NCBI GenBank assembly: GCA_035297365.1
Contig: DATGZA010000011.1
Span: forward strand, 64,001-128,000
Source of the DNA: Nitrososphaeraceae archaeon
GTDB lineage: Archaea > Thermoproteota > Nitrososphaeria > Nitrososphaerales > Nitrososphaeraceae
Direction: 5' to 3'
Length of the DNA: 64,000 bases
Shown here piece by piece: positions 2,077 to 43,746 of the stretch (within the stretch, counting starts at the first letter, position 1; each line of letters begins with the position of its first letter). The notes under the pieces were generated by a model. It was given only the letters and a program-made list of their open reading frames with translations, had not been told where the DNA came from and did not search any database. Position numbers and translations under genes: made by a program.

Positions 2077-2148
2077 AAAAAATGTTACTGAACCCTGTTA
2101 ATATAAGGGCTTAGAGGATAGTCAACTGTTTTTGACGCAATTTTGTAG
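2077..2148 (+). repeat. Dispersed site A1 (left arm L1 + right arm A)
   Basis: aaaaaatgttact-GAACCC-N11-GGGCTT-agaggata-GTCAActgtttTTGAC-gcaattttgtag. Confidence 0.9.
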
Positions 2149-2452
2149 CCAGAAAAAGAGATATTGTGAATTGATAATCAGATGTAAAAGCAATTAAATG
2201 TAATTGTTCCTCAATTTATGATATAATTTCTATCATTATTCTTATATTATTATTGACATCTTTACGTCCATAATCTGAAAATCCTCCTAAAATTGGACAT
2301 AATCCGAAAGTTCTTTTATGGATGTTTAAATTTATAACTTAGCACCATAATAATAGTCTTATATCTGTATATTTTTACATCTTTTTCTGTGTCTTTTTTT
2401 GAGTAGATAAATATAATTATTGAAGTTGGGAATAAATGGTGAATAAGAAGAA

Positions 2453-2644
2453 ATGAGCGGCCAATATAGGGACTGCCTTTATCATATCACAATATATGCA
2501 GAGAGAGAAGGAACCCAGGACATACACTGTCAGACAGAAGCAACCAGAAATATATCATGTTGGACGGATTTAACAACTGTTAATTTCTGTGAATTCCATT
2601 ATCAATTAGTTTCTAGATTGATGGATGCTGAGGACAAAAAATGA
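2453..2644 (+). CDS. Small Cys/His-containing hypothetical protein
   Basis: 63-aa ORF, ATG start after a purine-rich run, tandem with the next small ORF. Confidence 0.4.
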   Translation: MSGQYRDCLYHITIYAEREGTQDIHCQTEATRNISCWTDLTTVNFCEFHYQLVSRLMDAEDKK

Positions 2645-2677
2645 TGAAGCAACAGAGATATCAAAGTAGTAACGGAT

Positions 2678-2899
2678 ATGTTTGTACAGTGTGAAAATAA
2701 GCAGTGTAAGAAATGGGTTAGATTATCCGCAGTAGATCCAGAAGATGGAATGAGAACAATTCCATTACTTTGTTTCACTAATTATAAAGGGAAAGGTGAA
2801 GATTTTTGTCTTATTGTAGTATCCTCTGACAAATTGGGTTGTCACCAATACACTCTACCTTCACATTGGGTATCGATCCAGAATCTATTCCATTATTAG
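2678..2899 (+). CDS. Small Cys-rich hypothetical protein; 3' end overlaps the opposite-strand gene
   Basis: CENKQC motif near the N-terminus; 73 aa. Confidence 0.35.
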   Translation: MFVQCENKQCKKWVRLSAVDPEDGMRTIPLLCFTNYKGKGEDFCLIVVSSDKLGCHQYTLPSHWVSIQNLFHY

Positions 2900-3664
2900 A
2901 TATTGATGTTGGGTCGAAATCTCTATCAACTATTATTCCTTTTTCCAACTGACATTCAATTAATGCATCAATCTCAGATTCGAAACCTGATCCTAAAATG
3001 GAAGAAAGGACAAGACGTAAGAAGTCATCGGATAGAATAACACCTGTTTCTTCTTCTGAATTTTGAATTATAGCACATAATTGTTCTATAGTATCCGTGG
3101 CAAATGTGATTACAAAAACCTCCTCCTCGCCTGGTGTAGTAATGGGTGGACCAATGGCGATAAAAGCAAAATCACCAAAATCTAAGATAGCAAGTAATTC
3201 TTCAATTGCTGCTTTGAGTTCAGGGTGTTCAGCAAAACATTCTTCACATCCTAGGTCTTCCTCTTCTTCTGGCGGTGGAGTAATTTTTACCTGTTCGTTG
3301 TCATTCACATTTGCGCATACGTTTAAAGGTTTCTATCAAAGTTTATTCTGTCTGCAAGTCCGTTACCGTTTTGAGTATTTGCTCCTTCCTGACCTCCTTC
3401 ATTTGTTGCTGCAGTAGCAGCACCGTCTTGAGGTATTTGGGTAATATCTATTCCATTGACATTTATGTTACTGTTTACACACTTTATTTTTTGGATATCT
3501 GTATAACTCTTTTTTTGATGGTTATTATCATATCCGTACTGGTCTCCGTACATTTGTGCAGTTGCATTTGTAATTGTTGATGGGTTCAAAGCCAGTATAC
3601 TTGTCGCTAGTATTGCTCCCAGTATAGAAGCAAAAACTATCATTCTGCTGTTGCTATTGCTCAT
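2811..3664 (-). pseudogene. CVNSNINVNG-module secreted protein, copy 1, split by a 1-nt deletion near 3325
   Basis: ORFs 3323..3736 and 2811..3308 join if AAC CTT TAA ACG is restored to AAC CTT GTA AAC GTA (NLVNV, as in the paralogs); likely start MSNSNSRMIVFAS at 3664. Confidence 0.8.
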
Positions 3665-3805
3665 TACATTGTTAAATACGATTTTAATATATCTAAGGTT
3701 GGAAGGAACATTATCTATCTTGTAATATTTTATCATGCTGAATTATTGACTATAAGAAGAATAGCAACTAATCTTTAAGTAAATATAATATGAAATATTT
3801 CAATA
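3665..3805 (-). promoter_or_regulatory. Conserved upstream leader of the CVNSNINVNG family (copy 1)
   Basis: Aligns by eye with 4456-4595, 25420-25554, 52133-52250 and 52905-53031; TATA-like ATATATTAAA about 20-27 bp before ATG. Confidence 0.7.
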
Positions 3806-3891
3806 ATCTCAAGAATTGTAGTTTTGTTAGTTAATTAATTAATTAATTACTAAGAAAAGGTACAACAACCAAAAAAACGAATGAAAAAAAT

Positions 3892-4455
3892 TTATGGCGG
3901 TGGCAGTATTATTAAGCCTAATTCTGCTAGACAATTGACTATTGATTCTTTTTGCTTGTCTGTTATATTCGGTATCCCACCAAGTAGGAGTCCAAGAGAA
4001 AGGTTTTCCGCGCTTCCATTTGGTGTCTCAGCGAAAAAATCACACAATTCATCGATTGAATCAAAGTCGGTGATCTCTAACGCAGTGGCAATTTGTGCTC
4101 TATTTAGAACTGAAAACAAACAGTCCTCACAAGTTAGTTGGTCAGGACCGTTTATCTGTTCATTGTCATTAACATTTACACAGATATTTACTAGGTTTCT
4201 ATCGAAGTTTATTCTATCTGCAAGTCCATTGCCGTTCTCTGTATTCGGTTCTTCATTTGCTGCTGCTACTGCTGCAGTATTGTCTTGTGGCACTTGTGTG
4301 ATATCTACACCATTGATATTTATGTTACTGTTCACACATTTTATTTTCTGTATTTCCGCCTTTGCATTTCCTATCATCATTAATGGGTTTAAAACCAATA
4401 GACCTGTCGCAACTATCACTGCGATAGAAGCCAGAACTATCTTTTTACTGGTCAT
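3892..4455 (-). CDS. CVNSNINVNG-module secreted protein, copy 2 (intact), helical Cys-containing C-terminal domain
   Basis: Signal-peptide-like N-terminus; IQKIKCVNSNININGVDITQVPQD...NGNGLADRINFDRNLVNICVNVNDNEQ. Confidence 0.8.
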   Translation of the reverse strand: MTSKKIVLASIAVIVATGLLVLNPLMMIGNAKAEIQKIKCVNSNININGVDITQVPQDNTAAVAAANEEPNTENGNGLADRINFDRNLVNICVNVNDNEQINGPDQLTCEDCLFSVLNRAQIATALEITDFDSIDELCDFFAETPNGSAENLSLGLLLGGIPNITDKQKESIVNCLAELGLIILPPP

Positions 4456-4595
4456 TACATTGTTAAATGCGAATTTAATATATCTATAGTTAGTAGGAAC
4501 ATTATCTAATGTTCTAATATTCTATCATTCTGAATTATTGACAATAAGAAGAATAGCAATTGATCTACAATTACAATATGAGGTATTGTAATAAT
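4456..4595 (-). promoter_or_regulatory. Conserved leader copy 2 with perfect inverted repeat GAACATTA-N2-TAATGTTC (4497-4514)
   Basis: The same palindrome occurs at 52174-52191, just upstream of the TATA-like box. Confidence 0.7.
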
Positions 4596-4705
4596 ATTAT
4601 GTGTTGGATTATAGTTAGTTAATTAGTTAATATATTCAAAATAAAAATAATGGTTATATCACTTGTTGGTATATTATGAAGTCACTGAAGGAAAGAGGGA
4701 CGAGG

Positions 4706-5011
4706 TTAAGAAAAGGTTTGAATTTGTCCACTTTTGAAATTACTATCGATAGAGACCCAGAGAGGTTTTTCATATCTTAATATATTTATAATATCATTAA
4801 ATCTATCTATATGATAAAAAATGTCAAATGTTCCGTCTTCATTTATGATATTCTTAGGAAGAGGTGAATCATCTACAAATCTAAGTGCCCCGAGGTTGTT
4901 GTTGTCCTTATCGGAGAGATGTATATATGCTGACATTTTAGGTACATCCTGGAAATTATCACTGTTATATGCTATTCGATATGAATCAATCTGTTTTGAA
5001 ATGAAAGACAT
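4706..5011 (-). CDS. Hypothetical protein, C-terminus possibly truncated
   Basis: 101-aa ORF with plausible composition (FNDIINILRYEKPLWV). Confidence 0.6.
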   Translation of the reverse strand: MSFISKQIDSYRIAYNSDNFQDVPKMSAYIHLSDKDNNNLGALRFVDDSPLPKNIINEDGTFDIFYHIDRFNDIINILRYEKPLWVSIDSNFKSGQIQTFS

Positions 5012-5076
5012 GACAGTCTAACGATTTTATTGTTATTATAACCTTTACATTATACTATTTATTTTATAGGATAGTT

Positions 5077-5619
5077 ATGTCAAAAGAAGAAATAGCAAAA
5101 TCAATAATTTCTCAAGAGATATGTCAAATAGATTCTGATACGTCTAAAATCAAAGAAAATGGATGTGCAGCATGTCATGTGCTATTTACCTTAGTTGATA
5201 AAATGCAGATAAGTGAACAAGATGCGTCAGAATTGCTATCAGAGATTTTAACCAATGAATCAAATCTAAATGATCAATTTATTGAAATGATCGAAACTAT
5301 TCATATGAAACAAAGAATGATTGGTGTAACATTTTCAATAAAAACCAGAGAAGCTAAAGATCGGTATATAGACTTAAATCTAAAAAATTTTTTGGAAGAA
5401 CTATCAACTGATTTGGTAAATTATGGTAGTGATATAATATTACATAAATTACTTTTATCATCAATTTCATTACAAATAGCACAAAATATAGGAATAGACC
5501 ACCATTCAGCAACTGAAGAACTTTATTATTATATTCGTAAAAATGAACAGAATACAAATCAAAACATAACACAGTTCATTGACAAATTTTATGAAAGAAT
5601 CATAAAAAGTAACAAATAA
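5077..5619 (+). CDS. Hypothetical protein with CxxCH-like motif (GCAACHV)
   Basis: 180-aa ORF, no signal peptide. Confidence 0.7.
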   Translation: MSKEEIAKSIISQEICQIDSDTSKIKENGCAACHVLFTLVDKMQISEQDASELLSEILTNESNLNDQFIEMIETIHMKQRMIGVTFSIKTREAKDRYIDLNLKNFLEELSTDLVNYGSDIILHKLLLSSISLQIAQNIGIDHHSATEELYYYIRKNEQNTNQNITQFIDKFYERIIKSNK

Positions 5620-5678
5620 GATATTAGCAGTATGTATAATGTTAAAATTTTTGATTTGAAAATTATTTAGTTTAATCA

Positions 5679-5840
5679 AGATCTGAAGGCTTCGACTATG
5701 ACATGTAATACGGATCAATACTCTCGTATTTAGTCATTTAGTAACTTATTTGAAATCTTTACCATATAATTCTGAGAGAATTTTGAAATAAAGATAAAGG
5801 GAATCAGTGGGATTTGAACGCTTCTATAAAGTGGGACCAG
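5679..5840 (+). repeat. Dispersed site B1 with long right extension
   Basis: gaaggcttc-GACTAT-gacatgtaata-CGGATC...gtatttag...gggaatcagtgggattt-GAACGC-N11-GGGACC; about 160 bp homologous to 49670-49830. Confidence 0.8.
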
Positions 5841-5901
5841 TTCCTTTTTGAATAAATTACTATTATCTATCCTATACTTTTGAATTTTTATTTCAAAATT
5901 T

Positions 5902-6060
5902 TTAGTTTACTAGGTCATCTATAGAAATTGGAGGATACTTTTCATCTAGATCTTTAACTATTTTAGTCTTTTCTAGATTGGTAGCATCATCAGCAATACG
6001 TTTGATTGCTACAGTTGCTTCATGCATTTCTTTAGTTCCTTGAGATATTTCATCGGTCAT
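5902..6060 (-). CDS. Small hypothetical protein (52 aa, below the ORF-track cutoff)
   Basis: MTDEISQGTKEMHEATVAIKRIADDATNLEKTKIVKDLDEKYPPISIDDLVN; AT-rich TATA-like run upstream. Confidence 0.45.
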   Translation of the reverse strand: MTDEISQGTKEMHEATVAIKRIADDATNLEKTKIVKDLDEKYPPISIDDLVN

Positions 6061-6869: not shown

Positions 6870-6945
6870 AAAAAATCACCGATTTCTCTTACTTTTTTTC
6901 TTATCCTTTGCATTTATATTCTATCCATTTTACTCTTGCAAAATA

Positions 6946-7016
6946 GATGTATGTGAACCCCTATATAACACGGGCTCGGAGAATAATCAACTGTTTTTGA
7001 CGCAATTTTGTAGTTC
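6946..7016 (+). repeat. Dispersed site A2 (L2 + A)
   Basis: gatgtatgt-GAACCC-ctatataacac-GGGCTC-ggagaataatcaactgtttttgacgcaattttgtagttc. Confidence 0.9.
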
Positions 7017-7177
7017 TGATCAGGAATTAATTACCTTACACTCTTATTATATTTTACATATATCTTATTTTATTTATAAAAATGAATTCAAATGAGACTA
7101 AAGTTTTCATTATTTTGATTTTTCAAATTTTTTTATAATATCTATCTGGTATAACAATCATATTATCAAAAGGGTAA

Positions 7178-7633: not shown

Positions 7634-8022
7634 AAATGGTTTTTAATGAAATAATAGTATTTGAATCAATTTCTTTAGTAAATGTATTACTATAGTGCAA
7701 AAATGTATAGAGCATTAACCTATTAACCATATGGAACTGTATTTTAAGTTGTTAAACAGTAAATTTTAAATATATAAAGTATTTTTTATGAATCCCTGCT
7801 GTAGCTAAATCAATTAAGTGTATAGTTTGTGTACATGAGATAACTTCTATAATATATCAATCATAGTTTATTACATGATTTAGTCCACAATCAAGTTGCT
7901 AAATAATTTTCTATCTATGTTACTATCACTTCTTTAGAACGTTAATTCTGAATGTTCAAATACTAAAATTGCAATCATAATTGTTCCAATCTCAAAAATA
8001 TTTTAATCATATCTAACTGTAT

Positions 8023-9411
8023 ATGACTAACCAAAGATTACTTTTGGTTTCTATATTGACATTATTAGTAGCTGCAGGTCTATTGGTCTTAAGTCCTTCA
8101 ATGATAATATGAAATGCACAAGGACAAATGTACAACTACGACTACCAAAACGATCACTATAAAGTTTATCCAGATCCAAAAAAAGAGTTCTGATGCAAAC
8201 ATCCAGAAAATTAATGTATCAATACCAACATCAATGTAAATGGAATAGATATTACTGAGACTCCTAAACACAGTACTGCTCTAGCAACAGCAAATGAACG
8301 AGGTGCTGAAGGAACAGCAGAAACAGCAAATACTCAAAACGGTAATGGCCTTGCCGATAGAATAAACTTGGACAAGAATGTTGTAAACATATGTGTAAAT
8401 GTTAATTTTAACGAACAGGTACAAGAAAATCCTCTTACTTTGATGACTTGGAATATCTATCAGGGTGCAGATCTGTCACCAATATTTGCTGCTACTACCC
8501 CCAATGAATTTTTTAAGGCTGTCGGTGCTGCTTATAATAGAGTCCAAGCAACCAATTTTGTGGAAAGGCCGGATTCAATTGCAGACGAGATCCAGGAAAG
8601 TCAACCTGATCTGATAGGTCTTCAAGAAGTGATATTACTTAGGACACAAATTCCTTTTGACGGTCCTACGACACCTGCAACTACGATTTCATTTGATTAT
8701 CTTAAAATTCCTATAGACTCACTAGCTGAACATGGATTAATTTATGAACCGATTGTTGTTCAGACAGGTACTAATATTGAAGTTCCAGGCTTGACATCTA
8801 CAGGCCTTGTGAATATAAGACTCACTGACAGGGATGTAATATTGGCCCGAGCAGACAAAGATTTTACATTATCAAATATCCATCGAGAGCAGTTTGATGT
8901 GAAACTACCATTAACAACTCTATTTGGATCTATTAGTATACCACACTCATGGGTTTCAGTGGATGTAACGTTTGATAAAGGAGATAAAGGCCGTATCGTC
9001 TCTACTCATCTAAAGCCCCTGTCTCCTATTATTCAGGGATTACAAGCAGATGAGTTGTTAAATGGGCCTGCTAATACAGATTTACCTGTTGTGTTGATAG
9101 GCGATTTCAATTCAAATGCTTATGGAACTGGGACACAAACATACACAAAACTAAAAGATGCAGATTTTATTGATGCGTGGACTATAAAGGGAAAAGGCAC
9201 TAGTTTTACTTGTTGCCAGGCTTATGATTTGCTAAACCAGGATTCTTCCCTAACTGATAGAATAGATTTGGTGATGTTCCGAGGCAATTTTGATGTAAAA
9301 GATATAGAAATTACTGGGAATTCGCAAAATGATCGTACAATATCTGGTCTTTGGCCATCGGACCATGCAGGACTTGTGACTAATCTAATACTGAATAGTG
9401 ATAAACATTAA
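8023..9411 (+). pseudogene. CVNSNINVNG-module copy 3: decayed N-terminal module fused to an endonuclease/exonuclease/phosphatase domain (ORF 8368..9411 is open)
   Basis: 8023-8410 encodes frameshifted IQKI.CINTNINVNGIDITE...NGNGLADRINLDKNVVNICVNVN; the EEP domain has MTWNIY, LQEV, GDFNS, RID and SDH motifs. Confidence 0.8.
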
Positions 9412-19800: not shown

Positions 19801-19908
19801 ATTTCTGAATTATTGTGTTTCTACGAAATACTTTGCAAATCATTTGATGTATCAGAGCCTTGATAGTCAACGGGGTCCGAGGATAGTCAACTGTTTTTGA
19901 CACAATTT
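19801..19908 (+). repeat. Dispersed site A3 (long L2 + A)
   Basis: 60-bp left arm matches 31921-31979; GAGCCT-tgatagtcaac-GGGGTC-cgaggatagtcaactgtttttgacacaattt. Confidence 0.9.
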
Positions 19909-20133
19909 AATATTTCGAAAGAAATACTTTAAAGAATGACCGATTTTGATATAATTGATACCAATCTTATCTAAATAATAATACTAATGCCAGAAATGAC
20001 TAAAGCTAAAATCTGAAATTTTCTTTTAAAAGGAACTTTTAAATGAAAACTTGTAACAATCAACAAGAATGGAACCCGTAATATAGTTTCACTGTGATTT
20101 ATATTAAATAATAAGGTTAGTATTTTTTTTACT

Positions 20134-25419: not shown

Positions 25420-25554
25420 GAAAATATTTCATATTGTGCTTGTACATCAAATGCGATTCTTCTTATAGTCATTAATTGAGAATGATAAAATATTACAAGA
25501 TTCGATAATGTTTCTTCTAACCATAGATATATTAAATTCGTATTTAAAAATGCA
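25420..25554 (+). promoter_or_regulatory. Conserved leader of the CVNSNINVNG family (copy 4)
   Basis: attcttcttatagtcattaattgagaatgataaaatatt...gataatgtttcttctaaccatagatatattaaattcgtattt. Confidence 0.7.
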
Positions 25555-26180
25555 ATGAGCAATCAAAAGATAGTTAATGCGTCTATACTGGGAGCAATAC
25601 TAGCGACAGGTCTACTGGCTCTAAACCCATCAATGCTTACAAACGCACAAGCACAGATGTACAATTATGATCATGGAAATGATACTATAAAGTATACTCC
25701 GATTCAAAATCACCTGATGTAAACGTTCAGAAAATAAAATGTGTAAATAGCAACATCAATGTCAATGGTATAGATATAACCGAAATACCTCCAGATGGTA
25801 CGACTGCAGCAGAAGCAGCAGAAAATGAAGGCGGAGCAGGAGCAAATAGCCAGAATGATAATGGTCTTGCAGACAAAATAAACTTCGACAAAAACCTAGT
25901 AAACGTATGTGCAAATATAAATGATAACGAACAGACAAAAATCAGTTCTCCAAAAGAAGCAAATTTGCTTGTGACCAAAACTGTCACCTGTGAGGACTTT
26001 TCTGATGAGTCGGTTCCTTCGGTTCAACAGGGGGTAAATCCTTGTCCAGTACTTGAAGCCACAATAACCGAAGATCAATTTGATATTTCGGTATCAGGTA
26101 ACAATCCAGTTCGACCTCAATTTCAAGGTTCAGAAGGAGGACATGAAACTCATAGGACACTTACTATCAAAATAATATAA
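25555..26180 (+). pseudogene. CVNSNINVNG-module copy 4, frameshifted near 25690, with a short beta-rich C-terminal part
   Basis: MSNQKIVNASILGAILATGLLALNPS then, in another frame, VQKIKCVNSNINVNGIDITEIP...KNLVNVCANINDNEQ continuing into ORF 25965..26180. Confidence 0.8.
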
Positions 26181-26409: not shown

Positions 26410-26526
26410 AAAAAATGTTATTGAACCCTATTAATATACGGGCTCGGAGCGCTTCGAGTTTGACATTTAGTTGGGATCTGTCTTTACAAATTTAAACTTT
26501 AACTTTTTAAAATCAATGTGACCATT
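26410..26526 (+). repeat. Dispersed site B2 (L1 + B)
   Basis: aaaaaatgttatt-GAACCC-N11-GGGCTC-ggagcgcttc-GAGTTT-gacatttagtt-GGGATC; right extension matches 51542-51617. Confidence 0.9.
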
Positions 26527-28831: not shown

Positions 28832-28901
28832 ATATTAATAAACTTATTAATGAGGGTGCAAACAGAGGATAGTCAACCGTTTTTCACATAATTTTGTAGT
28901 T
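28832..28901 (+). repeat. Dispersed site A4 (L3 + A, with AAAC inserted in the core)
   Basis: atattaataaact...gggtgc-aaac-agaggatagtcaaccgtttttcacataattttgtagtt; partner of 59168-59238. Confidence 0.8.
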
Positions 28902-29042
28902 TGATAATTTTTGTGATTACCTTATTCCTTCCTTATTTACAAAAGACTTTGATATTAATCAAAAGTTTTGTTATTCAATTCCTTAAACACATAAAATAAG
29001 AGTAAGATGAGGAGATGCTTCTGTAAAAAAATTTTAGGTAAA

Positions 29043-31920: not shown

Positions 31921-32035
31921 ACATTTCTAAATTATTGTCTTTATAAAATACTTTGCAGAAAGTTGATGTAAAAGAGCCTTGATACTATATGGACTCGGAG
32001 GGTAGTAAACTGTTTTTGACACAATTTTGAAGTTC
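31921..32035 (+). repeat. Dispersed site A5 (long L2 + A)
   Basis: GAGCCT-tgatactatat-GGACTC-ggagggtagtaaactgtttttgacacaattttgaagttc. Confidence 0.9.
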
Positions 32036-32211
32036 TATATCAAAAATATCCACAAATTGTTCTTACATTCTAACAAAAATACCATCGATATCTCACTTTT
32101 GATATGGGTGTAGAATGGATGAAAAACAATAGTAAATTAGAAAATTTTACATTACTCAACTACTTACCTATTAAAAATTTTTAACGTGATACCTATAATT
32201 CTATTTAATTA

Positions 32212-33516
32212 ATGGATAGTATAAACAAACAAGTTCCACTTTATCCTCTATTATTAATTAATTTTATAGGAACTTTAGGTTTTAGTATTGTTTTACCTTT
32301 TTTGATATTTTTAGTCATAGATTTTGGAGGGAATGCTATAGTCTATGGAATACTAGCTGCAGTATATCCTGCATTTCAACTAATAGGAGCTCCATTTCTA
32401 GGAAGATGGTCTGATATTTATGGGCGAAAAAAAGTTCTTCTTGTCAGTCATGGAGGAACATTAATTGGTTGGATATTTTTTCTTTTTGCATTATTTTTGC
32501 CTGTTGAAAATCTTTTTAGTATTAATTCTGCTCTTTTTGGAACTATTGTTATAACTCTTCCTTTACTTGTATTATTTTTTGCACGTTCTATTGATGGGAT
32601 AACAGGTGGCAATATTTCTGTTGCCAATGCCTATCTTGCAGATATTTCATCAGATGAAAATAGAAGTAAAAACTTTGGTAAAATGGCAATATCTTCGAAT
32701 CTTGGTTTTATTGTGGGTCCCGCATTAGCAGGAATTTTAGGTGCAACTATTTATCAAGAAATATTGCCTGTCTTGGCTGCTCTATTTCTCTCTCTAATTA
32801 CCTTAATAGTCATAGGTTTCGCTTTAAAAGAATCAAAGTCTCAATCGGCTGTTACGAAACAAATTCCGGAAGAAGAAAGTGTTAGAAAAGTTTTTGCACA
32901 TGAATGCAAAGAATGCTACCAGCCTGAAAATCCAAAGAAACTTAAATTCCAAGATGTTTTCAAGTTAGAAAATATTCCATTTCTAATTGTCTTATATTTT
33001 TTTATTTTCCTTGGATTTAACATATTTTATACATCTTTTCCAATTCATGCAGTAAATGATTTAAAATGGTCAGTAACCGAACTGGGAATATTTTATGCAG
33101 TATTAAGCGGAATCATGGTTTTGGTACAAGGTCCGATTTTGCATAAGTCTTTAAAAAAATTCTCTGAAGAAAAACTAGTTATAATTGGAAGTATCATTTT
33201 AGGTACAAATTTTATTTTATTTGTATCAAATGATGATATCTTAATTTATGTTGCTGCAATTCTATTTGCAGTTGGGAATGGGCTGATGTGGCCATCTTTT
33301 ATGTCAATGCTTTCGAAGATTTCTGGTAATATATATCAAGGATTCATACAAGGAGTTGCAAGTAGTTTTGGAAGTTTAGCAAGTATTTTTGGACTAACAA
33401 TAGGAGGATTTCTGTACAATTTAATCGGAGGATTTACTTTTCTAATTAGTGCTGGAATCATATTTGCAATTTTTATTATGTCTTTTAGACTATTGAAAAT
33501 GAAAGTGTTTAACTAA
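32212..33516 (+). CDS. MFS transporter (TetA-like drug:H+ antiporter family)
   Basis: GRWSDIYGRKKVL motif A, GITGGNISVANAYLAD, GFIVGPALAG. Confidence 0.9.
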   Translation: MDSINKQVPLYPLLLINFIGTLGFSIVLPFLIFLVIDFGGNAIVYGILAAVYPAFQLIGAPFLGRWSDIYGRKKVLLVSHGGTLIGWIFFLFALFLPVENLFSINSALFGTIVITLPLLVLFFARSIDGITGGNISVANAYLADISSDENRSKNFGKMAISSNLGFIVGPALAGILGATIYQEILPVLAALFLSLITLIVIGFALKESKSQSAVTKQIPEEESVRKVFAHECKECYQPENPKKLKFQDVFKLENIPFLIVLYFFIFLGFNIFYTSFPIHAVNDLKWSVTELGIFYAVLSGIMVLVQGPILHKSLKKFSEEKLVIIGSIILGTNFILFVSNDDILIYVAAILFAVGNGLMWPSFMSMLSKISGNIYQGFIQGVASSFGSLASIFGLTIGGFLYNLIGGFTFLISAGIIFAIFIMSFRLLKMKVFN

Positions 33517-33612
33517 CTAATTATAAAAAATAAAAAAGGTCTATCAAAATAGGATGTTATAGTTTAAATATAGTCTAAATTAAGCAATGTTTACCATTTT
33601 TTTTATTCTTTG

Positions 33613-33686
33613 AAAAATGTTATTGAACCATACTAATATAGGGGCTCGGAGGTTTGTAAAATGATTTTGACACAATTTTGTAGTTC
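33613..33686 (+). repeat. Dispersed site A6 (L1 + A)
   Basis: aaaaatgttatt-GAACCA-N11-GGGCTC-ggaggtttgtaaaatgattttgacacaattttgtagttc. Confidence 0.9.
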
Positions 33687-33713
33687 TATAGTTAGAAAAA
33701 ATAAATTATATCT

Positions 33714-35218: not shown

Positions 35219-35480
35219 TTCACTAAAAAGTATACTATAGGAAATTTAAAGAATAGGTTTACAAAGTATTAAAAAATAATTATTACAAGAGAAAAAAAAC
35301 AATCTGCAACGATAAATCTAAAGTAATTTAAAGCAAGAAGGAGATTGTAAAAAATCTTCCTGTTTGTAAATTAAGAGAGTTAAGTGGATATCATATCCTC
35401 GGTTATTAGTATTATATTAAAAAAATATATTTTGCATTTGAACTGAATTTAGTTATATATCAAAAACTTACAGCTGCAGA

Positions 35481-35520
35481 GAGACGATAATCAATTGATT
35501 TTGACACAATTTTGTAGTTC
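35481..35520 (+). repeat. Dispersed site A7 (right arm A only)
   Basis: gataatcaattgattttgacacaattttgtagttc. Confidence 0.75.
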
Positions 35521-35709
35521 ACAAAAAAGAAATGTTGTAAATTGATTAGTAATATTTGAATGCAAATTAACTAAAAATAAAGAGGCAGAACCTTACTAAC
35601 TAGATGCAAAATTTCTTATACTGATCGCCCATGTAAGATGTGTTATAACCTTACTCTAAGTTTTGGTTATTGACTTGAAGATAGAAACAAAATAGAATTA
35701 TACTGGATA

Positions 35710-36636
35710 ATGTATGGCAATTTAATGGAAAGATTTTTTTGGACCCAAAAGGAGGACATCGGTGCTTCACCTAGAACGGATCATTCAATGTGCTATGACT
35801 CTGATAAAGAGAAAGTAGTGCTTTTTGGGGGTGTGGCTGCCGGTACTAATCGTCTAGGTGACACTTGGATATGGAATGGCAATGAATGGACTCAAGTATC
35901 TGATACCGGACCATCACCAAGATCCGGTTCGGATATGGTTTATGACTCTTTTAGAAAAAAGTCTGTTTTATTCGGCGGCTATGCCGGAGGTTTGCCAACT
36001 GACCACTTTAATGATACTTGGGAATGGGATGGCCATGAATGGACTCAAGTAGCTGATACCGGACCATCAGCACGTCGAAATCATGCTATGGCATATGATT
36101 CCACGAGGCAAAGAGTAGTATTATTTGGCGGAGCACCCTTTAATGGTCCGTTTTTTAATGATACTTGGGAATGGGATGGCAATGAATGGACTCAAGTAGC
36201 TGATACCGGACCATCAGGACGCCATGCACACACTATGACGTATGATGAGTCTGCACAGATCGTGTTATTATTTAGTGGATCAACATTAATCGGGAGCTCA
36301 GTGGGAGAGACATGGGGATGGGATGGCAATGAGTGGACACACTTGCAGCATCTAGGCCCTGGCCGTTTAGTCGGATCACCTATGGTATACACAGTTCACG
36401 GTACAATTCTTTTTGGAGGAAAAACTGTAAATGACGAAGTAAATGATAATACTTGGCTGTGGGACGGTCCATTTTGGACTCATACTCAAGATATAGGTCC
36501 TAGCGCTAGATACGGTCATGCCCTCGCTTATGATAGCAGAAGAGATAGAGTAGTACTATTTGGTGGAGGAGTAGTTGCTGCTGGAATGCCACCTCTTGGT
36601 GATACATGGGAACTCAAAATAGAACCAATCTCATAA
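35710..36636 (+). CDS. Kelch-like beta-propeller repeat protein
   Basis: Six repeats of GPS.R..H.M.YDS....VVLFGG...DTWEWDG.EWTQ. Confidence 0.88.
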   Translation: MYGNLMERFFWTQKEDIGASPRTDHSMCYDSDKEKVVLFGGVAAGTNRLGDTWIWNGNEWTQVSDTGPSPRSGSDMVYDSFRKKSVLFGGYAGGLPTDHFNDTWEWDGHEWTQVADTGPSARRNHAMAYDSTRQRVVLFGGAPFNGPFFNDTWEWDGNEWTQVADTGPSGRHAHTMTYDESAQIVLLFSGSTLIGSSVGETWGWDGNEWTHLQHLGPGRLVGSPMVYTVHGTILFGGKTVNDEVNDNTWLWDGPFWTHTQDIGPSARYGHALAYDSRRDRVVLFGGGVVAAGMPPLGDTWELKIEPIS

Positions 36637-36868
36637 ATATACATTATTTTTTTGTTCTACTTGATAATAATTTTATACAAGGATTATGTAAAAAATTTAT
36701 GTCAAATCTGTTTCCTTTGACAACAACGTATTTAAAAACAATTTATAGACAAATTTTATTAAATAATCATAAAAGGTAACAAATGAGATTTTAACATTAG
36801 ATTTTAACATTATTTATAAGGTTAAAATTTTTGACCTTAAAATTACGTTAGTTTAGATTTAAGAATAT

Positions 36869-36915
36869 TGGAGGGGCTTAGAGTATTACATGGATTTTGA
36901 TCCGGTAACATAATA
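36869..36915 (+). repeat. Dispersed site B3 (degenerate)
   Basis: ggaggggcttagagtattacatggattttgatccggtaacataata; shares cggtaacataata with 42303-42315. Confidence 0.65.
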
Positions 36916-37343
36916 CTGGTTATAGCTCATTACCTAAAATGATCTATTTTTTTTATTTAGTATTACATATCGTCCCTTTATTAATTCATTTATATCTTTA
37001 AAAATCCATCTTATTTATTCTAGAAAATTTTATATATTATTGATATTTGTTAATTTTAAAATGTGAATCAAATTTTTGTTAAATCTATTAGTATCTCCCC
37101 CTTATCATCATAATACTATTAGTGTCATACATTGTACCTTGCATATTTGCACAAGATGAATCATCAGAGGTAATGTCTTCTATGAAATTTTAGGATTTAG
37201 ATTGATATAAATAGTAACATGTTTATATTTCAGTGAAGCGATTAAACTATTTGCGATAGCGATAGAATTTTGTGATACAAGTTATTTAAGAAAGATATTT
37301 AATTCTTGAATTTGTTTAAATATTGGTACTCTAATGTAGTCAT

Positions 37344-37745
37344 ATGTTAGGAGCAGAAATAGGTCATGAAGAGGGTCAGATTATTGGACGTAGAGTGTTG
37401 GAGGAAGTTCCCAAAATAGAAAATACGTTTAATGCGGAGGGTAGTTTTAGAGGAATAGATATCAACGATCTAGGAACTTATTGGACCACTGTAAGACCAG
37501 GAGGAGTATTATATGGAGAGGGACAAGGAGTCTTAGTTAGTACAGATGGTCAAATGGCTACATGGACAGCACAGGGATTGGGTCGATATATATCTTCAAG
37601 AGTAATAAGATTTCGCGGTAGTTCATTTTATAGAACAGATTCAACAGGAAGTCTTGCTTTTCTCAACAATATGATGGCAGTTTTTGAATTTGAAATAGAT
37701 GAACGAGGTAATACGTCCGCAAGAAATTGGGAATGGGAATTTTGA
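37344..37745 (+). CDS. Beta-rich hypothetical protein (no signal peptide), paralog of 9810..10352
   Basis: GTYWTTVRPGGVLYGEGQG...LAFLNN...EIDERGN...WEW. Confidence 0.75.
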   Translation: MLGAEIGHEEGQIIGRRVLEEVPKIENTFNAEGSFRGIDINDLGTYWTTVRPGGVLYGEGQGVLVSTDGQMATWTAQGLGRYISSRVIRFRGSSFYRTDSTGSLAFLNNMMAVFEFEIDERGNTSARNWEWEF

Positions 37746-37870
37746 CTAAAAATAACCAATATTGTTATTTTTACTTTTATTCTTTTGTCTCCCTTTTTAT
37801 CAATTTAATTTAGTTTAATTATAGTATCTATAAACACTATAATTATCTTTTCCAAAGAACTTATTTCATT

Positions 37871-37928
37871 TCAAATGGTTGACGGGCTCGCAGGTGTATC
37901 AACTGTTTTTGGCACAATTTTGTAGTTC
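37871..37928 (+). repeat. Dispersed site A8 (L4 + A)
   Basis: tcaaatggttgac-GGGCTC-gcaggtgtatcaactgtttttggcacaattttgtagttc. Confidence 0.88.
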
Positions 37929-39968: not shown

Positions 39969-40861
39969 TTTCTTCAACTCCAATGGTTCTCTTTTTTTAT
40001 TCTCGAGAGTCCTGGATTTTTTTTGGATTTGCCACAATTCCATTATTGTTTCTTTCCAATCTCTTCATTCTCATGGATTTCAGGCCAGAACGATACAAGC
40101 AATTTATTATCTGAATCTAAAAATCTTAGTCATTTTGTATTCAAAGTATTAGGGTAATTTTGGATTTCCAAGATTAATAATATGGTATATAGGAGAACTC
40201 AACAAATGTATATTTATGCTCAAGGATTGTAATCTAATCTTTACCTATTAAGAGACCGAAAGTATCTATTTAATATAAAGATGTTTAAAAGTAAAACAAT
40301 TAAGGAAATGATACCGCTCTAAAAGGAAGCTTAAATGGGATATCACCATTATTATTCTCCTGTTTTCCTAGGACAATTTGATTATAAAACGAGATCTCGC
40401 TACTTAGAAATAGAATACTTAGTAAAATATAAGATATATTATTTTCTTCAAAAACTCATATATTGTGTATATACAATTTCTAAATATATTAATATGAGGT
40501 AACATAGTTTATAGACTAATGTCATAGAGCCATATCTTTAAATTAGTTACATAATACTTAAAATCTTAAATCTGACCTCTCTATTCCCGAGATATAATAA
40601 TTATTCATTCGCAAAACAGAATAAAGAAAATTAATGAGTAATGAATTTTAAATATCTCTTAATGTAAATAATAATCCCTAGATGTATCATCCTTTTATAT
40701 GATGAAATTATTGTTTCTAATTTAGTCTATAAATTATGTGTTAAAATTTCGTAGTACCACAAAAATATCCTTATTCCCTTATTATTTTTGATATTATTTA
40801 TTATTTGATATATCAAATAATTTTAATCGAGGTACATATACATAACACAAAATATATTTAA

Positions 40862-40976
40862 TATAAATGAACTATTTTTTATCAATCAATGAATTAAAGG
40901 TTAAAAGATCAAACATGTTGTTGTGATAATAGGGACTGGGAGAAGACTTAGAGTACGACATGTACTTGGAATTGGT
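40862..40976 (+). repeat. Dispersed site B4 (L5 + B)
   Basis: Left arm ataaatgaa...aatgaattaaaggttaaaa matches 59766-59810; gacttagagtacgacatgtacttggaattggtt. Confidence 0.75.
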
Positions 40977-41159
40977 TTGTGAAAAGTATTATATATTTAT
41001 ATCAAAGTAATTCACAGTAATTAAAAATTATTCCCTATATTATAGTAACATAGATATTCTTATAGGAAAATAATATTGTGATTCTGTGAAAGTATTGATT
41101 ATAAAATAAGATTTCAAAATAAGTAAATTCATAACTACCTTTGAGCTGTTTTAGAATCT

Positions 41160-42209
41160 ATGATTCATGTTATGGGATATGCAGCTAAGGAAGCCAAAGC
41201 GTCTCTAACACCTTTTTCTTTTGAAAGACGGGACCTCCGTGATCATGATGTAATGATTGATATTCAGTATTGTGGGATTTGTCATACAGATATTCACCAA
41301 GTAAATAATGAATGGGGACGATCAATCTACCCTATGGTTCCAGGTCACGAGATAGTTGGAAATGTTTCACATGTAGGTTCACAAGTTACGCGATTCAAGG
41401 TTGGTGATAAAGTAGGTGTAGGTTGTTTTGTTGATTCTTGCCGCAATTGTCATGCTTGCCGTCAAGGGATCGAACAATATTGTAGTAATGTTCTAACAAC
41501 TTATAATGGAATAGAAAAAGATGGCAAAACTCCTACTCAAGGAGGATATTCTAAAAAAATTGTAGTAGATGAAAACTATATCCTTCGTATGCCTGACAAC
41601 CTTGCTCCAGAACGTGCAGCTCCCCTTCTTTGCGCTGGTATAACTCTTTATTCACCTCTCATACATTGGAAAGCAGGACCAGGAAAAAAAGTTGCTATAA
41701 TAGGTCTTGGTGGCTTGGGACATATAGGTGTAAAAATTGCACATGCACTCGGCGCAGAAATAACTGTGTTAAGCCATTCACTTAAAAAACAAGAAGATGC
41801 CAAGAAAATGGGAGCTCATAAATTTTATGCTACATCAAATCCAAAAACTTTCGAAAAATTTGAAGGATATTTTGACATTATAGTCAATACAGTTTCAACT
41901 GATCTTAACTTGAGCCAGTATTTGAATCTGCTTAAACTTGACGGAACAATGGTAATAGTTGGAGCTCCAGAAAAAGATGCTCGAGTAAGCGCACAATCTT
42001 TGATAAGTGCTCGTCGTAATCTCGCTGGTTCTCTAATTGGTGGAATTAATGAAACTCAAGAAATGCTCAATTTTTGTAGTAAACACGATATTGCATGTGA
42101 CGTTGAACTCATTCCAATTCAAAAGGTGAATGAAGCCTATGACCGTATCTTAGATAGCGATGTACGATATCGTTTTGTAATCGATTTAAATTCTCTTGGT
42201 AAAATGTAA
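41160..42209 (+). CDS. NAD(P)-dependent zinc alcohol dehydrogenase (cinnamyl ADH / YahK-like)
   Basis: [50 protein letters not shown]. Confidence 0.95.
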
Positions 42210-42263
42210 CTATGAAGTTGAACTAATAATATCTGGTCAAAAGAATAGCATGTGTATTTTTAT

Positions 42264-42320
42264 CGGGCTCGGAGGACTTCGAATTTCTATTAAATCAGGG
42301 TTCGGTAACATAATATTTAG
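42264..42320 (+). repeat. Dispersed site B5
   Basis: c-GGGCTC-ggaggacttc-GAATTT-ctattaaatca-GGGTTC-ggtaacataatatttag. Confidence 0.85.
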
Positions 42321-42646
42321 GAGGATTTTCGTTATTTACTTATATTGAGGGATTAGAATCTGGAAGTGAAGATATAGAAAAAATTGAAAAGGCCTTAGAG
42401 ATAAGCCAATATTAATCTAATAATTAGATTAATCTAGTTTTATTGTTATGTTTGATAATTTGAATTACCAAATGGTTGAAAGGAATTCAAATTTATAAAT
42501 GATATTTTAATAAAGTTTTAGTTGAATATAGTCAAGTGTTAAGCATTTTCTAGCATTTTCTATTATTTTTATTGTCCAAAATTTATATATTTTAGCAAGT
42601 CATAAAAATTAAAATAAATAAAAATAAGGTAAAAAATCACTTATTA

Positions 42647-43282
42647 TTATTCTACTTTAATTTCTTTTCCTTTAGGCTTTGTCTGTTTCCTTCTATTAAA
42701 TACGATTTCCAGAATTCCGTTATTATATGTAGATTTAACAGTTTCAATGTCTGCTTCTGTTGGTAAATCTATTACCTTATGGTATTTTCTTTGTGGATTA
42801 TCACTTATAATTTCTACCGAATTTTCGTAAGCATTTATCTTTATATTTTCTTTTTTGATACCTGGCATTTCTACTACAATTTTTACTTCCTTATCTGTAG
42901 CTGATATATCAACTAAAGGTTCTCTTTCTGAAGAAATTGATGGTTGTTTGAAGAATCCTGCCCTGCCTGTAAAAGGAGATTTTACGTTACCAAATTCTCT
43001 TATATCTGGTTTTCCATCAGGTCCTATGGTCATAGAATAGCCATATATTATTGGACCTACTTCTCTAACTTTTCCACCTTCCGGTGTTTCGTATTCTTTA
43101 ACTAAATCTTTTGGTACTCTGTTTTCAATATTTTTAAATGGTTCAGAAAACGTTCTTTCTATTTCGTTTCTCATTTCATCAAATTCTCTGAATAAATCGT
43201 TAAGGTTCCAGCTGCCAAAAGGACTTCGTCCACCAAAAAATCTTTTGTCCCAATCTCTTGGAATTATATCTCTATTACTCAT
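42647..43282 (-). CDS. hsp20: Archaeal small heat shock protein Hsp20
   Basis: GPIIYGYSMTIGPDGKP.IREFGN, REPLVD, EMPGI.KE.I, YNNGILEI. Confidence 0.93.
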   Translation of the reverse strand: MSNRDIIPRDWDKRFFGGRSPFGSWNLNDLFREFDEMRNEIERTFSEPFKNIENRVPKDLVKEYETPEGGKVREVGPIIYGYSMTIGPDGKPDIREFGNVKSPFTGRAGFFKQPSISSEREPLVDISATDKEVKIVVEMPGIKKENIKINAYENSVEIISDNPQRKYHKVIDLPTEADIETVKSTYNNGILEIVFNRRKQTKPKGKEIKVE

Positions 43283-43499
43283 TGTAAGATTTCACCATAT
43301 GTTGTAATACACATTACATTATATAAACCTTATTACACAATTGAGTTCGTTTAAATGATTTATTATTGCGATGAATATTTTTATTTGATGACCTATATTA
43401 TGAGAAGTTATCTCTACTACTTACCTTATTATTTGACACGAGGAATAACGGCTATAGAAAAGGAAATAAATATTCTTAATTATTAACACGTTAATGATT

Positions 43500-43644
43500 T
43501 TATTTTTTTTTATCAATAATTTCTGATAGTTGGTGCTTGTATGTCTTGATTCCTGATATCTGTAATATTCTTGTATCAAATGCCTGTTGGCATTATTGCA
43601 ATCTCATTTATTTTTTTCAGAACAGTTTCAAGTTTTTGGTGCAT
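43500..43644 (-). pseudogene. Frameshifted N-terminal fragment, possibly of a tyrosine recombinase/integrase
   Basis: MHQKLETVLKKINEI / CNNANRHLIQEYYRYQESRHTSTNYQK after one frameshift; recalled resemblance to N-terminal domains of Nitrososphaeraceae integrase-family proteins; no catalytic domain visible. Confidence 0.45.
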
Positions 43645-43679
43645 TTACAGGTCTCTCCTTCCTGTTTTATTACAATATT

Positions 43680-43746
43680 CATGTATATGAAACCAGATAT
43701 AGTACGGGCTAGTAGGACTTGGAATTTGGCTTGTAATTGGGATCGG
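43680..43746 (+). repeat. Dispersed site B6 (L2-like + B)
   Basis: catgtatat-GAAACC-agatatagtac-GGGCTA-gtaggacttg-GAATTT-ggcttgtaatt-GGGATC-gg. Confidence 0.8.

Follow-up and report, generated by a model that had tools for sequence, protein, structure and literature searches.

Krupovic et al. (2019, PMC6563490) described thaumarchaeal integrated elements whose tyrosine recombinases recombine with the 3′-distal part of a tRNA gene, leaving short direct repeats. Most of these are classed there as 'cryptic integrated elements', and arrays can be built by re-using one site. The tandems described in that article hold at most two elements per target, namely a pair of proviruses in an intergenic target and a pair of casposons in ef-2. 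Hackl et al. (bioRxiv 10.1101/2020.12.28.424599) described the tycheposons of Prochlorococcus, which integrate at tRNA genes and usually bear integration and replication modules. Later insertions displace older elements deeper into the island, and these islands contain scattered, fragmented integrases and partial tRNAs, with niche-adaptive cargo carried as plug-in cassettes. Integrons are reported in Archaea too (bioRxiv 10.1101/2022.02.06.479319). Finally, the 'suicidal' archaeal tyrosine integrases of the SSV type also act on tRNA genes, and their att site lies within the integrase gene, which is split upon integration (PMC7253208).

The repeats analysed here lie in a window of 64,000 nt from a Nitrososphaeraceae chromosome, and their closest analogues are the tRNA-targeting thaumarchaeal elements and the tycheposon islands. 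As in the former, and as expected of an integrative element that targets a tRNA gene, the core of the repeat is a tRNA 3′ end, a tyrosine recombinase stands beside the att site (in relatives) and the repeats are direct and co-oriented. The locus differs from the elements described by Krupovic et al. in its at least 31 co-oriented sites over 103 kb, in having most units without integrase and in its three right-arm types, which combine with several left-arm types. The main text of that article has 0 occurrences of 'tRNA-Arg', its targets being listed in its Table S2, so that overlap is possible. With the tycheposon islands described by Hackl et al. the locus shares the plan of a tRNA-anchored, flexible island of gene units, whereas the host there is bacterial and the integrase lineage putatively different; here there is one site per ~2.6 kb, and no replication genes were found among the 40 ORFs of contig C11 that were scanned with Pfam.

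Searches with nhmmer models built from the site copies of C11, the contig that contains the window, located 31 modular sites between 40.4 and 143.4 kb (~103 kb), all 31 on the plus strand and 20 of them in the window (Table 1). Elsewhere in the genome, nhmmer found seven clear sites (three on C6, two on C26 and two on C60) and two very weak matches. Each site has three parts: a left arm that varies, the core GGGCTCGGAGG and one of three right arms (A, B or C). The third type, C, is seen at window positions 42265 and 59838, and arms B and C have GCTTCGA after the core in common. With at most one mismatch the core occurs eight times in the window, always on the plus strand, against 0.03 expected, a count that was reached in 0 of 100 shuffles. 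The core is perfect at 8 of 34 sites and beyond recognition at several, and the tendency for cores to be better nearer the supposed tRNA end falls short of significance (rho −0.33, p 0.054, n = 34). A 28-mer from arm A, with up to three mismatches allowed, has 18 matches across the 2.52-Mb genome, of which 15 are on C11, all on its plus strand, and the same search with the 28-mer written backwards returned 0. Of 24 further congeneric genomes 22 carry arm A, and none of the 16 examined from the order's other families does. The spacing between neighbouring sites on C11 has a median of 2.6 kb, with 19 of 30 intervals no longer than 3.5 kb and the smallest at 639–735 bp. Units today mostly hold one to three ordinary accessory genes without integrase, and the genes that flank the co-oriented sites lie on both strands.

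Table 1. Sites and units of the array in the window (window coordinates).
Feature	Position	Strand	Evidence or remark
Site: L1, core GGGCTTAGAGG, arm A	2077..2149	+	nhmmer E 5.5e-13
Degenerate site: decayed core, arm B	5650..5716	+	E 1.4e-4; syntenic B site at G041 1265203
Site: L2', core, arm A	6946..7017	+	E 2.8e-14; G041 synteny block ends here
Site: long L2 (~75 nt), core, arm A	19801..19917	+	nhmmer
Site: L1, core, arm B	26410..26484	+	18/19 nt identical to tRNA-Arg(TCG) 3′ end
Site: L3, variant core (..CAAACAGAGG), arm A	28832..28902	+	nhmmer
Site: long L2, core, arm A	31921..32036	+	nhmmer
Single-gene unit between two sites	32037..33612	+	MFS transporter ORF 32212-33516
Site: L1, perfect core, arm A	33613..33687	+	nhmmer
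Site with arm A, no recognisable core	35450..35521	+	G041 synteny block ends here
Unit: Kelch-repeat ORF 35710-36636 and 133-aa ORF	35522..37883	+	skipped exactly by one soil contig
Site: L4-like, core, arm A	37871..37928	+	nhmmer; G041 synteny block begins here
Site: L5, decayed core, B-like arm	40862..40978	+	nhmmer E 5e-4
Site: unique left arm, perfect core, arm C	42240..42315	+	nhmmer E 4.4e-15
Site: L2', core, arm B	43680..43752	+	nhmmer
Site: L2, core, arm A	44776..44847	+	nhmmer; soil contigs break here
Site: unique left arm, core GGGTTCTGAGG, arm B	49640..49716	+	nhmmer
Site: L6, decayed core, arm B	51481..51571	+	nhmmer
Site: L4, perfect core, arm A	52250..52307	+	nhmmer
Site: L6, decayed core, arm B	56353..56445	+	nhmmer
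Site: L3, variant core GCTCAAACGGAGG, arm A	59168..59239	+	nhmmer
Body of 0.64-kb mini-cassette, one PNPOx-like ORF 59312-59746	59240..59765	+	
Site: L5 (mini-cassette end), core, arm C	59766..59887	+	nhmmer

Preceded by a C, the core is identical to the 3′-terminal 12 nt of tRNA-Arg(TCG) from G041, a long-read genome of the same genus (the same genome as G017), in which aragorn places the gene at C10:1147352-1147426 with the terminus ...GATCGAAGCCCTCCGAGCCC-G. The A sites at C11:116263, C11:137766 and C6:1487 match these 12 nt at 12 of 12 positions. At B- and C-type sites the match is longer and extends into part of the T-loop, reaching 19 nt at perfect B sites: those at C11:134711, C11:143379 and C6:211 equal the last 19 nt of the tRNA at 19 of 19 positions. 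In the window, the core and GCTTCGA of site 26410..26484 resemble the T-loop and 3′ end, and the core of site 52250..52307 is flanked by a GTTGAC/GTCAAC inverted repeat. No intact tRNA-Arg(TCG) is present in the assembly of this genome, and C11 is tied to C6, the contig nearer the tRNA, by a 136-bp end overlap, which fits C68 too. In G041, whose tRNA spans 1147352-1147426, sites come after it at 1152054-1169966. Site orientation in that genome is 28 plus to 8 minus, and since the majority point away from the tRNA, inversion must be assumed.

A tyrosine-recombinase-like ORF of 436 aa begins 58 nt past the end of tRNA-Arg(TCG) in G041, and the sequence separating tRNA and ORF is left arm L4 in reverse complement. 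This ORF scores 26.3 bits against Pfam Phage_integrase, slightly below the cut-off of 27.1, its orthologue in G010 scores 28.1 bits, and the match to NCBIfam XerA_Arch (E 1.2e-6) reaches 28.3 bits where the curated cut-off is 220. A threshold of E ≤ 1e-5 yields 1687 homologues, a large number of which are named integrase or XerD at source, and residues R180, K208, R298, W320 and Y330 are invariant among 40 sequences. The best 11 Foldseek matches are all tyrosine recombinases, with weak E-values of 0.017–0.13, and the catalytic domain was modelled poorly (mean pLDDT 64; residues 183–252 and 299–336 below 50). Assignment to the tyrosine recombinase family draws on the conserved R-K-R-W-Y positions together with borderline HMM scores and weak fold matches. 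The tRNA is assembled in six of the 24 other genomes of the genus, and in four of the six, G041 included, it is followed by a complete ORF of 333–479 aa that matches Phage_integrase, mostly weakly (28.1, 26.3, 18.6 and 14.8 bits against the same cut-off). Of the other two, one has a partial homologous ORF after the tRNA and one runs off its contig.

The assembly of the window's genome contains no full-length integrase of the tRNA-Arg family, and PF00589 (Phage_integrase) has no match on C11, which holds only N-terminal integrase remnants (60165-60464, 137573-137706 and 149754-149900). Such remnants lie 60–68 nt from a core and on the opposite strand at C11:60524, C11:137766 and G041 1327256, 1328919 and 1283541. 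They adjoin L4 and L2' arms, the distance being 60 nt at two L4 sites of C11. Just 2 of 30 clear C11 sites have a remnant beside them, one more lying at 149.8 kb without a site, so that a simple version in which the units are decayed integrase-bearing elements would require much deletion. Integrase fragments adjoining att sites are a likeness to the SSV type as described in PMC7253208. A gene-splitting integrase of this kind was rejected, as the G041 integrase has its ATG 58 nt beyond the tRNA end and its ORF is whole at 436 aa; because the full gene begins outside the site, the C11 fragments are deletion remnants rather than split halves.

The sites are read as att sites because their core is the 3′ end of tRNA-Arg(TCG), an integrase adjoins this tRNA in relatives, and remnants stand beside L4 and L2' arms. 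These same three observations weigh against another view of the repeats, as modular regulatory or RNA elements (a 3′ end or terminator joined to promoter modules) whose arms were exchanged without a site-specific recombinase, through ordinary homologous recombination or gene conversion. Such modules would suit the strong conservation of the arms throughout the genus, the T5 and T4 runs in arm A and, by our own reading of the map, the finding that roughly half of the sites (about 15 of 30) follow a plus-strand ORF by no more than 500 nt. However, the sites keep to one strand though their flanking genes lie on both, are limited to one chromosomal region, and gave no Rfam family at gathering score and no stable fold, which renders this view improbable.

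Folding bears equally on the integron, which the locus resembles as a co-oriented array of small units with recombination sites between them and an integrase at one end (here in G041). A classical integron would have attC sites that fold as single strands and recombine at attI through an IntI-type integrase, and the short, often one-gene units with their conserved boundary repeat would fit. Nevertheless, five sites folded as single-stranded DNA on both strands (10 folds) gave z-scores between −1.67 and +1.56, and none formed a long imperfect hairpin. The sites are of a tRNA-derived, double-strand att type whose core is a tRNA 3′ end rather than an R''/R' box pair, genes lie in both orientations, and the G041 integrase adjoins the tRNA gene. 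Given the absence of attC-like folds and of a PF00589 match on C11, and the place of the G041 integrase beside a tRNA gene, integron membership was rejected as scarcely credible.

The first-pass annotation had proposed that left and right arms are combined in different pairs at a shared core: L1 with both A and B, L2 or L2' with A four times and an L2'-like arm with B, and L3, L4, L5 and L6 in two copies each. All of its coordinates were borne out (Table 1), and the ~11 bp that it gave as common to arms A and B is correct for those two arms. Left and right arms proved incongruent, congruence having been set beforehand as a possible refutation. In a set of 48 well-anchored sites drawn from this genome and one relative, left arms fall into classes, three of which (13, 10 and 7 members) each pair with two or three right-arm types. 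Within this genome, left class Lc1 stands with five A and two B sites and Lc2 with four A and two B; with the sites of G041 included, right-side partners extend to type C and to the tRNA body itself. The switch points are fixed rather than scattered, similarity changing at the core in most placeable pairs. Among 43 site pairs with a common left arm and different right arms, similarity stops at core positions +9 to +12 in 30 and +2 to +6 in 8, with 5 unplaceable, and in 156 of 208 pairs with a common right arm and different left arms it starts at −5 to +1, the pairs being mutually non-independent.

The suggestion that this mosaic represents attL/attR-type hybrids, with a crossover in or next to the core, is thus supported by the incongruence, the switch at the core, the tRNA-derived core, the integrase beside the tRNA and the integrase remnants. 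A site is more aptly seen as the place where two neighbouring inserted units meet, its left arm ending the left unit and its right arm beginning the right unit; the sites are not necessarily products of exchange between sites already within the array. Non-autonomous, MITE-like transposon ends spread by a transposase would likewise appear as short multi-copy repeats with defined boundaries. Yet the left and right parts assort independently about a tRNA-derived core, all 31 C11 copies are clustered and co-oriented, no target-site duplications were seen in the flanks inspected, and folding no better than shuffled sequence gives no sign of terminal inverted repeats. Such an origin is very improbable.

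It is proposed, with a probability of roughly 80%, that a series of integrase-mediated insertions at the tRNA-Arg 3′ end built up a tandem array of mostly integrase-less units. The repeats would be att sites of integrative elements that target the tRNA-Arg(TCG) 3′ end, the core corresponding to its last 11–12 nt. A tyrosine integrase encoded beside the tRNA would join a circular element (left arm–core–right arm) to the tRNA end or, alternatively, to a core already present in the array, and successive insertions would pile units head to tail. In an array site the left arm would then belong to the unit that finishes there and the right arm (A, B or C) to the unit that follows, and such a junction would account for the observed free arm pairing with the switch in the core. 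The present units may be decayed elements or small cassettes moved in trans. The action of the integrase on these sites, the exact positions of cleavage, present-day activity and mobilisation in trans are inferred. Weighing against the proposal are the missing tRNA and full-length integrase in this assembly with its ambiguous contig link, the few sites with a remnant, the site orientation in G041, the scarcity of perfect cores and their non-significant trend, the poorly modelled catalytic domain and the many synteny-block ends far from sites (see below). In addition, three pattern scans of IMG/VR returned no free element carrying such a site, the single match being a chance one inside coding sequence.

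By cross-genome comparison, some units behave as discrete cassettes. The 0.64-kb PNPOx unit occurs in three contexts (the window, C11:137766-138410 and G041:1316129-1316790); homology begins in one core and stops in the next, and the flanks differ each time. A 1.3-kb unit with two bounding sites, C6:194-1509, shares 99.24% identity with G041 and heads the 115 alignments of 500 bp or more (next 96.5%; weighted mean 90.7%); it adjoins right arm B in this genome and C in G041. At a place where C11 has a single site, G041 has two A sites with an additional 3.25-kb unit exactly filling the interval, and the order of units beyond C11:85 kb differs between the two genomes. Synteny-block ends fall within 30 bp of a site in 8 of 59 cases against 1.87 expected (maximum 7 in 2000 randomisations), the other 51 lying farther away, and ends of within-genome repeats near sites are not significantly enriched (6 of 115 against 3.6 expected).

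Soil contigs also join sequence across units. One from run X5 has a joint 35521->37929, with 57 nt on its shorter side, and omits the unit between; another joint is 44845->37930. By our own mapping, 11 of the 14 ends of seven large soil joints lie within ~60 nt of a site, although these joints derive from k-mer assemblies and the arms are repetitive, so that artefacts or joints between paralogous sites are possible. Contigs break at site 44776..44847 in all four soil runs compared, their continuations differing before 44797-44819 in at least three of the four and after 44850-44852 in all four.

These data invite a bolder reading, a dedicated integron-like platform on which the tRNA-Arg integrase, acting in trans, cuts out integrase-less units of 0.6–3 kb (one or two genes, with conserved left and right arms) as circles and inserts them again, making the array an actively shuffled reservoir rather than a graveyard of decayed elements. 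The short intervals, the core-bounded mini-cassette, the cassette nearly identical across species, the altered order past C11:85 kb and the soil joints over whole units all point this way, as do L1 and L2 arms kept beside unrelated cargo without an integrase remnant. Against it stand the mixed gene orientation, the many decayed cores and the doubts about the soil joints; moreover, homologous recombination between arms of 30–45 nt could also duplicate units. No circular junction or excision product was seen. This reading is tentative and less likely than not.

On the preferred reading of serial insertion at the tRNA, more than 100 kb of the chromosome of a soil ammonia-oxidiser-type archaeon is split into small, swappable gene units. 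More speculatively, a tRNA-Arg(TCG)-specific tyrosine integrase might move small integrase-less cassettes in trans, amounting to integron-like gene capture on a tRNA gene in a soil Nitrososphaeraceae genus. If so, cassettes of one or two accessory genes, bounded by a right arm (A, B or C) and a left arm (L1, L2 or others), would make up genus-wide, constantly reshuffled stocks of stress, redox and transport genes, 100–200 kb in size, and would provide a main route for gene gain and duplication in these archaea.

The window covers positions 64001-128000 of contig C11 (151.6 kb, in a 2.52 Mb assembly of roughly 30% GC and 97% completeness). The sites on this contig consist of three parts: a variable left arm (L1–L6), the core GGGCTCGGAGG, with AC before it in most cases, and a right arm, either A-type (..GTCAACTGTTTTTGACACAATTTTGTAGTTC) or B-type (GCTTCGAGTATGACATGTAGTTGGGATCGG..), to which a third type, C, is newly added. 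The arm sequences reported in the first-pass annotation were present at every position it listed. Allowing at most one mismatch, the window contains eight copies of the core, where 0.03 are expected. Profile scans located 31 sites on C11 between 40.4 and 143.4 kb, all 31 on the + strand and 20 within the window, and only seven further clear sites in the rest of the genome (three on contig C6, two each on C26 and C60). Because the site models derive from copies on this same contig, those copies match by construction; this does not account for how the sites cluster or for their strand bias. Spacing between sites on C11 has a median of 2.6 kb (range 0.64–12.9 kb), and both strands carry genes between them. 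Only 8 of 34 cores are perfect, and core quality showed no significant correlation with position along a pseudo-scaffold assuming the C11–C6 link, which is ambiguous (rho −0.33, p = 0.054, n = 34), or along C11 alone (rho −0.27, p = 0.13).

Coordinates of the features discussed (window positions unless a contig, genome or locus is named; G041, a congeneric long-read genome, is numbered on its contig C10)
Feature	Location	Detail
Type C right arms	42265; 59838	GCTTCGAATTCTCATTATAACAGGGTTCGGTAAC
Variant cores	28858; 59190; C60:49118	left arm L3 and arm A each time
L4–A sites	52250-52307; C11:137766	GTTGAC..(14 nt)..GTCAAC flanks core
L4 sites with integrase remnant	C11:60524; C11:137766	remnant 60 nt to the left
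Third integrase remnant	C11:149.8 kb	interrupted
GC-richer DNA	C11:149912-150400	outside window; GC 0.43 vs about 0.30
Repeat of C12:39574-40585	C11:150390-151394	81% identical
tRNA-Thr(CGT) and integrase ORF	C12:33265-34702	
tRNA-Arg(TCG)	G041:1147352-1147426	
G041 array (loci L142-L153)	G041:1147-1362 kb	strands -,-,-,-,- at 1147-1170 kb; + for 28 sites at 1176-1359 kb; - at 1361.9 kb
PNPOx unit	59199-59848; C11:137766-138410; G041:1316129-1316790	0.64 kb
Unit shared with G041	C6:194-1509	site at each end
Soil joint omitting one unit	35521->37929	
Junction of 103-aa ORF and MFS_3 gene	38295	
Arm C reached by soil jump	42289	
~137-aa protein family	3323-3736 (-); about 4192-4509; 8022-8376; 25498-25898; 52981-53331	with a long antisense ORF
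666-aa BNR/Asp-box protein	56849-58849 (-)	
Sites in MAG contig L083	5582; 7185	L2'-core-A

The core matches the 3′ end of tRNA-Arg(TCG). In G041 (identical with genus member G017; 340 kb of its 1.8-Mb contig was examined), this tRNA ends in ...GATCGAAGCCCTCCGAGCCC-G, and reverse-complementing its last 12 nt, counting the discriminator base, gives GGGCTCGGAGG with a C before it. The additional GCTTCGA in arms B and C corresponds to the T-loop of the tRNA. Three B sites of the present genome match the last 19 nt of the tRNA exactly, and three A sites match the last 12 nt. Readings of the arms as promoters, C/D-box sRNAs or sigma-54-like elements, made from sequence alone, were dropped once the tRNA identity emerged. 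The assembly of the present genome contains neither tRNA-Arg(TCG) nor a recognisable archaeal SSU rRNA, and scans of the window returned no tRNA, nor did any Rfam family reach its gathering score there. Six of the 24 other genomes of the genus have the tRNA assembled, and element sequence directly follows its 3′ end in all six. Most G041 sites point away from the tRNA; a single inversion, from about 1170 to 1361 kb, of an array of ~215 kb once contiguous with the tRNA would explain the orientations.

The first-pass annotation had proposed that left and right arms are paired in different combinations, as in attL/attR-type hybrids, with the crossover in or next to the core. Both parts of this proposal were borne out. 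Among 48 well-anchored sites (the remaining 17 of 65, with more than three mismatches in the core or flanks cut short, were dropped), three left-arm classes, with 13, 10 and 7 members, were each joined to two or three right-arm types. In 43 pairs sharing a left arm but differing in the right, similarity stops at +9 to +12 in 30 pairs and at +2 to +6 in eight, with five unplaceable. Correspondingly, in pairs sharing a right arm but differing in the left, similarity starts between −5 and +1 in 156 of 208. All sites share a block from about −2 to +10, with the arms changing on either side of it. Exchange between A-type and other sites must therefore be confined to this 12–13-nt block.

Several sites depart from, or add to, this plan. 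The variant core GCTCAAACGGAGG, present at three sites, can be read as the core carrying an inserted AAAC (4 nt). A 6-nt inverted repeat brackets the core at L4–A sites, and GAGCCC or GAACCC, able to pair with the core GGGCTC, lies 11–13 nt upstream in L4, L2 and L1. These motifs may be integrase core-binding half-sites.

In G041, a 436-aa ORF begins 58 nt past tRNA-Arg(TCG), and its predicted product is a divergent tyrosine recombinase. The ORF scored 26.3 bits against Pfam (cut-off 27.1; an orthologue scored 28.1) and 28.3 bits against NCBIfam XerA_Arch (E 1.2e-6; curated cut-off 220). It has 1687 homologues, many labelled integrase by their sources, and residues R180, K208, R298, W320 and Y330 are invariant across 40 sequences. 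A first structure model, from three sequences, was unusable (pLDDT 42). Foldseek with a second, built from 40 sequences and of mediocre quality (mean pLDDT 64), returned tyrosine recombinases in all of the top 11 rows, weakly matched (E 0.017–0.13, none at E ≤ 0.001); a PDB sequence search gave no hits.

Left arm L4 is the reverse complement of the 58-nt tRNA–integrase spacer, and N-terminal integrase remnants accompany two L4 sites on C11, on the opposite strand, as expected. Similarly, remnants lie 63–68 nt from three more sites in G041, one of them an L2′ site (a variant of L2) matching the integrase type beside the tRNA in G003, another genome of the genus. The six genomes with an assembled tRNA carry four complete integrase-like ORFs, of two families (one of 436–479 aa, the other of 333 aa), and one partial ORF; in the sixth the position falls off the contig end. 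A full-length integrase of the tRNA-Arg type is not assembled in the present genome. A third remnant on C11 is interrupted by a GC-richer insertion directly after its 5′ part; the inserted DNA may be an insertion sequence whose arrival eliminated the att site. The DNA that follows recurs on contig C12. That contig also carries tRNA-Thr(CGT), followed after ~400 nt by a 468-aa Phage_integrase ORF (54.9 bits), which is a second, separate tRNA-targeted integrated element of this genome.

It is proposed, with a probability of roughly four in five, that the array arose by serial integrase-mediated insertion. The integrase would insert units at the tRNA-Arg(TCG) 3′ end or at cores already in the array, and each site would be the junction between two neighbouring units, hence the free assortment of arms. 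An SSV-type reading was rejected because the integrase gene is intact and lies outside the site. Nor is the array an integron: the five sites folded as candidate attC, on both strands, form no stable structure (z −1.67 to +1.56), C11 encodes no IntI, and the core is a tRNA end.

Individual units behave like cassettes. Homology of the PNPOx unit, which holds one PNPOx-like ORF, starts in the GGAGG of one core and stops at the next core, with different left neighbours and right arms at all three places. The C6 unit matches G041 at 99.24% identity, higher than any other of the 115 alignments that reach 500 bp (next 96.5%). The two genomes share its left flank, but the right arm next to the unit is of type B here and of type C in G041. 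Where C11 has one site, G041 has two A sites with an additional 3.25-kb unit exactly between them, and beyond C11:85 kb the shared units are ordered differently. Of 59 synteny-block ends, 8 lie no more than 30 bp from a site, against 1.87 expected; within-genome repeat ends do so without significant excess (6 of 115 against 3.63). By our own mapping, contigs from four independent soil runs contain seven large joints, read from the contig-covered parts of the stretch, with 11 of 14 joint ends within ~60 nt of a site; one joint omits exactly one unit. These joints are weak support, because the arms are repeats and the contigs are k-mer assemblies. The numerous integrase-less units may be decayed elements or cassettes moved in trans. 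That the array is an actively used, integron-like platform is conceivable but somewhat doubtful.

Contigs from two soil runs also jump to an arm C from the junction of a 103-aa ORF and an MFS_3 gene. These genes occupy different units in G041, which suggests that an att site was lost at the junction.

The units carry ordinary accessory genes. They include transport and ion-handling proteins (MFS transporters, KdpA, a ferritin-like protein), redox proteins (two Zn-dependent alcohol dehydrogenases, luciferase-like monooxygenases, a nitroreductase, a Rieske-FMN reductase, a plastocyanin-like protein), stress, repair and signalling proteins (HSP20, 3-methyladenine glycosylase, ChrB_C, adenylate cyclase), a phosphoesterase, and BNR and Kelch repeat proteins. 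Among 40 C11 ORFs scanned with Pfam, none matched a mobility or replication family. A dispersed family of ~137-aa, low-complexity, probably secreted proteins, with no Pfam family, gave 25 tblastn matches on 14 contigs (eight on C11), in both orientations and both inside and outside the array. The 666-aa BNR/Asp-box gene has strong internal DNA repeats and related copies on C54 and C96.

The arm A 28-mer, with at most three mismatches, occurs in 22 of 24 further congeneric genomes and in none of 16 from other families of the order; its copies are co-oriented within each multi-match contig inspected. Among the 80 listed matches of the exact arm A 19-mer in a species-genome collection, 74 are titled as Nitrososphaeraceae or Nitrososphaerales soil MAGs. 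The other six have non-archaeal titles; in five of them the match arose by chance and no core is present, and the sixth holds a genuine site pair. This pair lies on a 483,732-bp contig titled uncultured beta proteobacterium, where the locus has 27% GC and the taxonomic label looks at odds with the content. Scans of IMG/VR with the A, B and C patterns gave 0, 1 and 0 matches, with no free element bearing such a site; the sole match was a chance one, inside coding sequence and without a core.

Tandem re-use of tRNA att sites and the dispersal of partial tRNAs in islands are already described (PMC6563490; bioRxiv 10.1101/2020.12.28.424599). In a non-exhaustive literature search, nothing was seen for a soil thaumarchaeal genus that matched the array's scale or site density, its three-by-several arm combinatorics or its sub-kilobase integrase-less units. 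The expanded genomes of terrestrial Nitrososphaerales are put down to gene duplication and lateral transfer (PMC7603488). The array, probably tRNA-anchored and with more than 30 att-bounded units, makes up at least 4% of a 2.5-Mb genome, has its signature in 22 of 24 sister species, and offers this genome flexibility both a concrete mechanism and a locus that can be mapped. Among archaea it would parallel the tycheposon islands of marine cyanobacteria and, if the small units move in trans, represent a cassette system of origin independent from integrons. The 12-nt core and its arms are ready markers with which gene flow between soil ammonia-oxidiser relatives could be followed in metagenomes.
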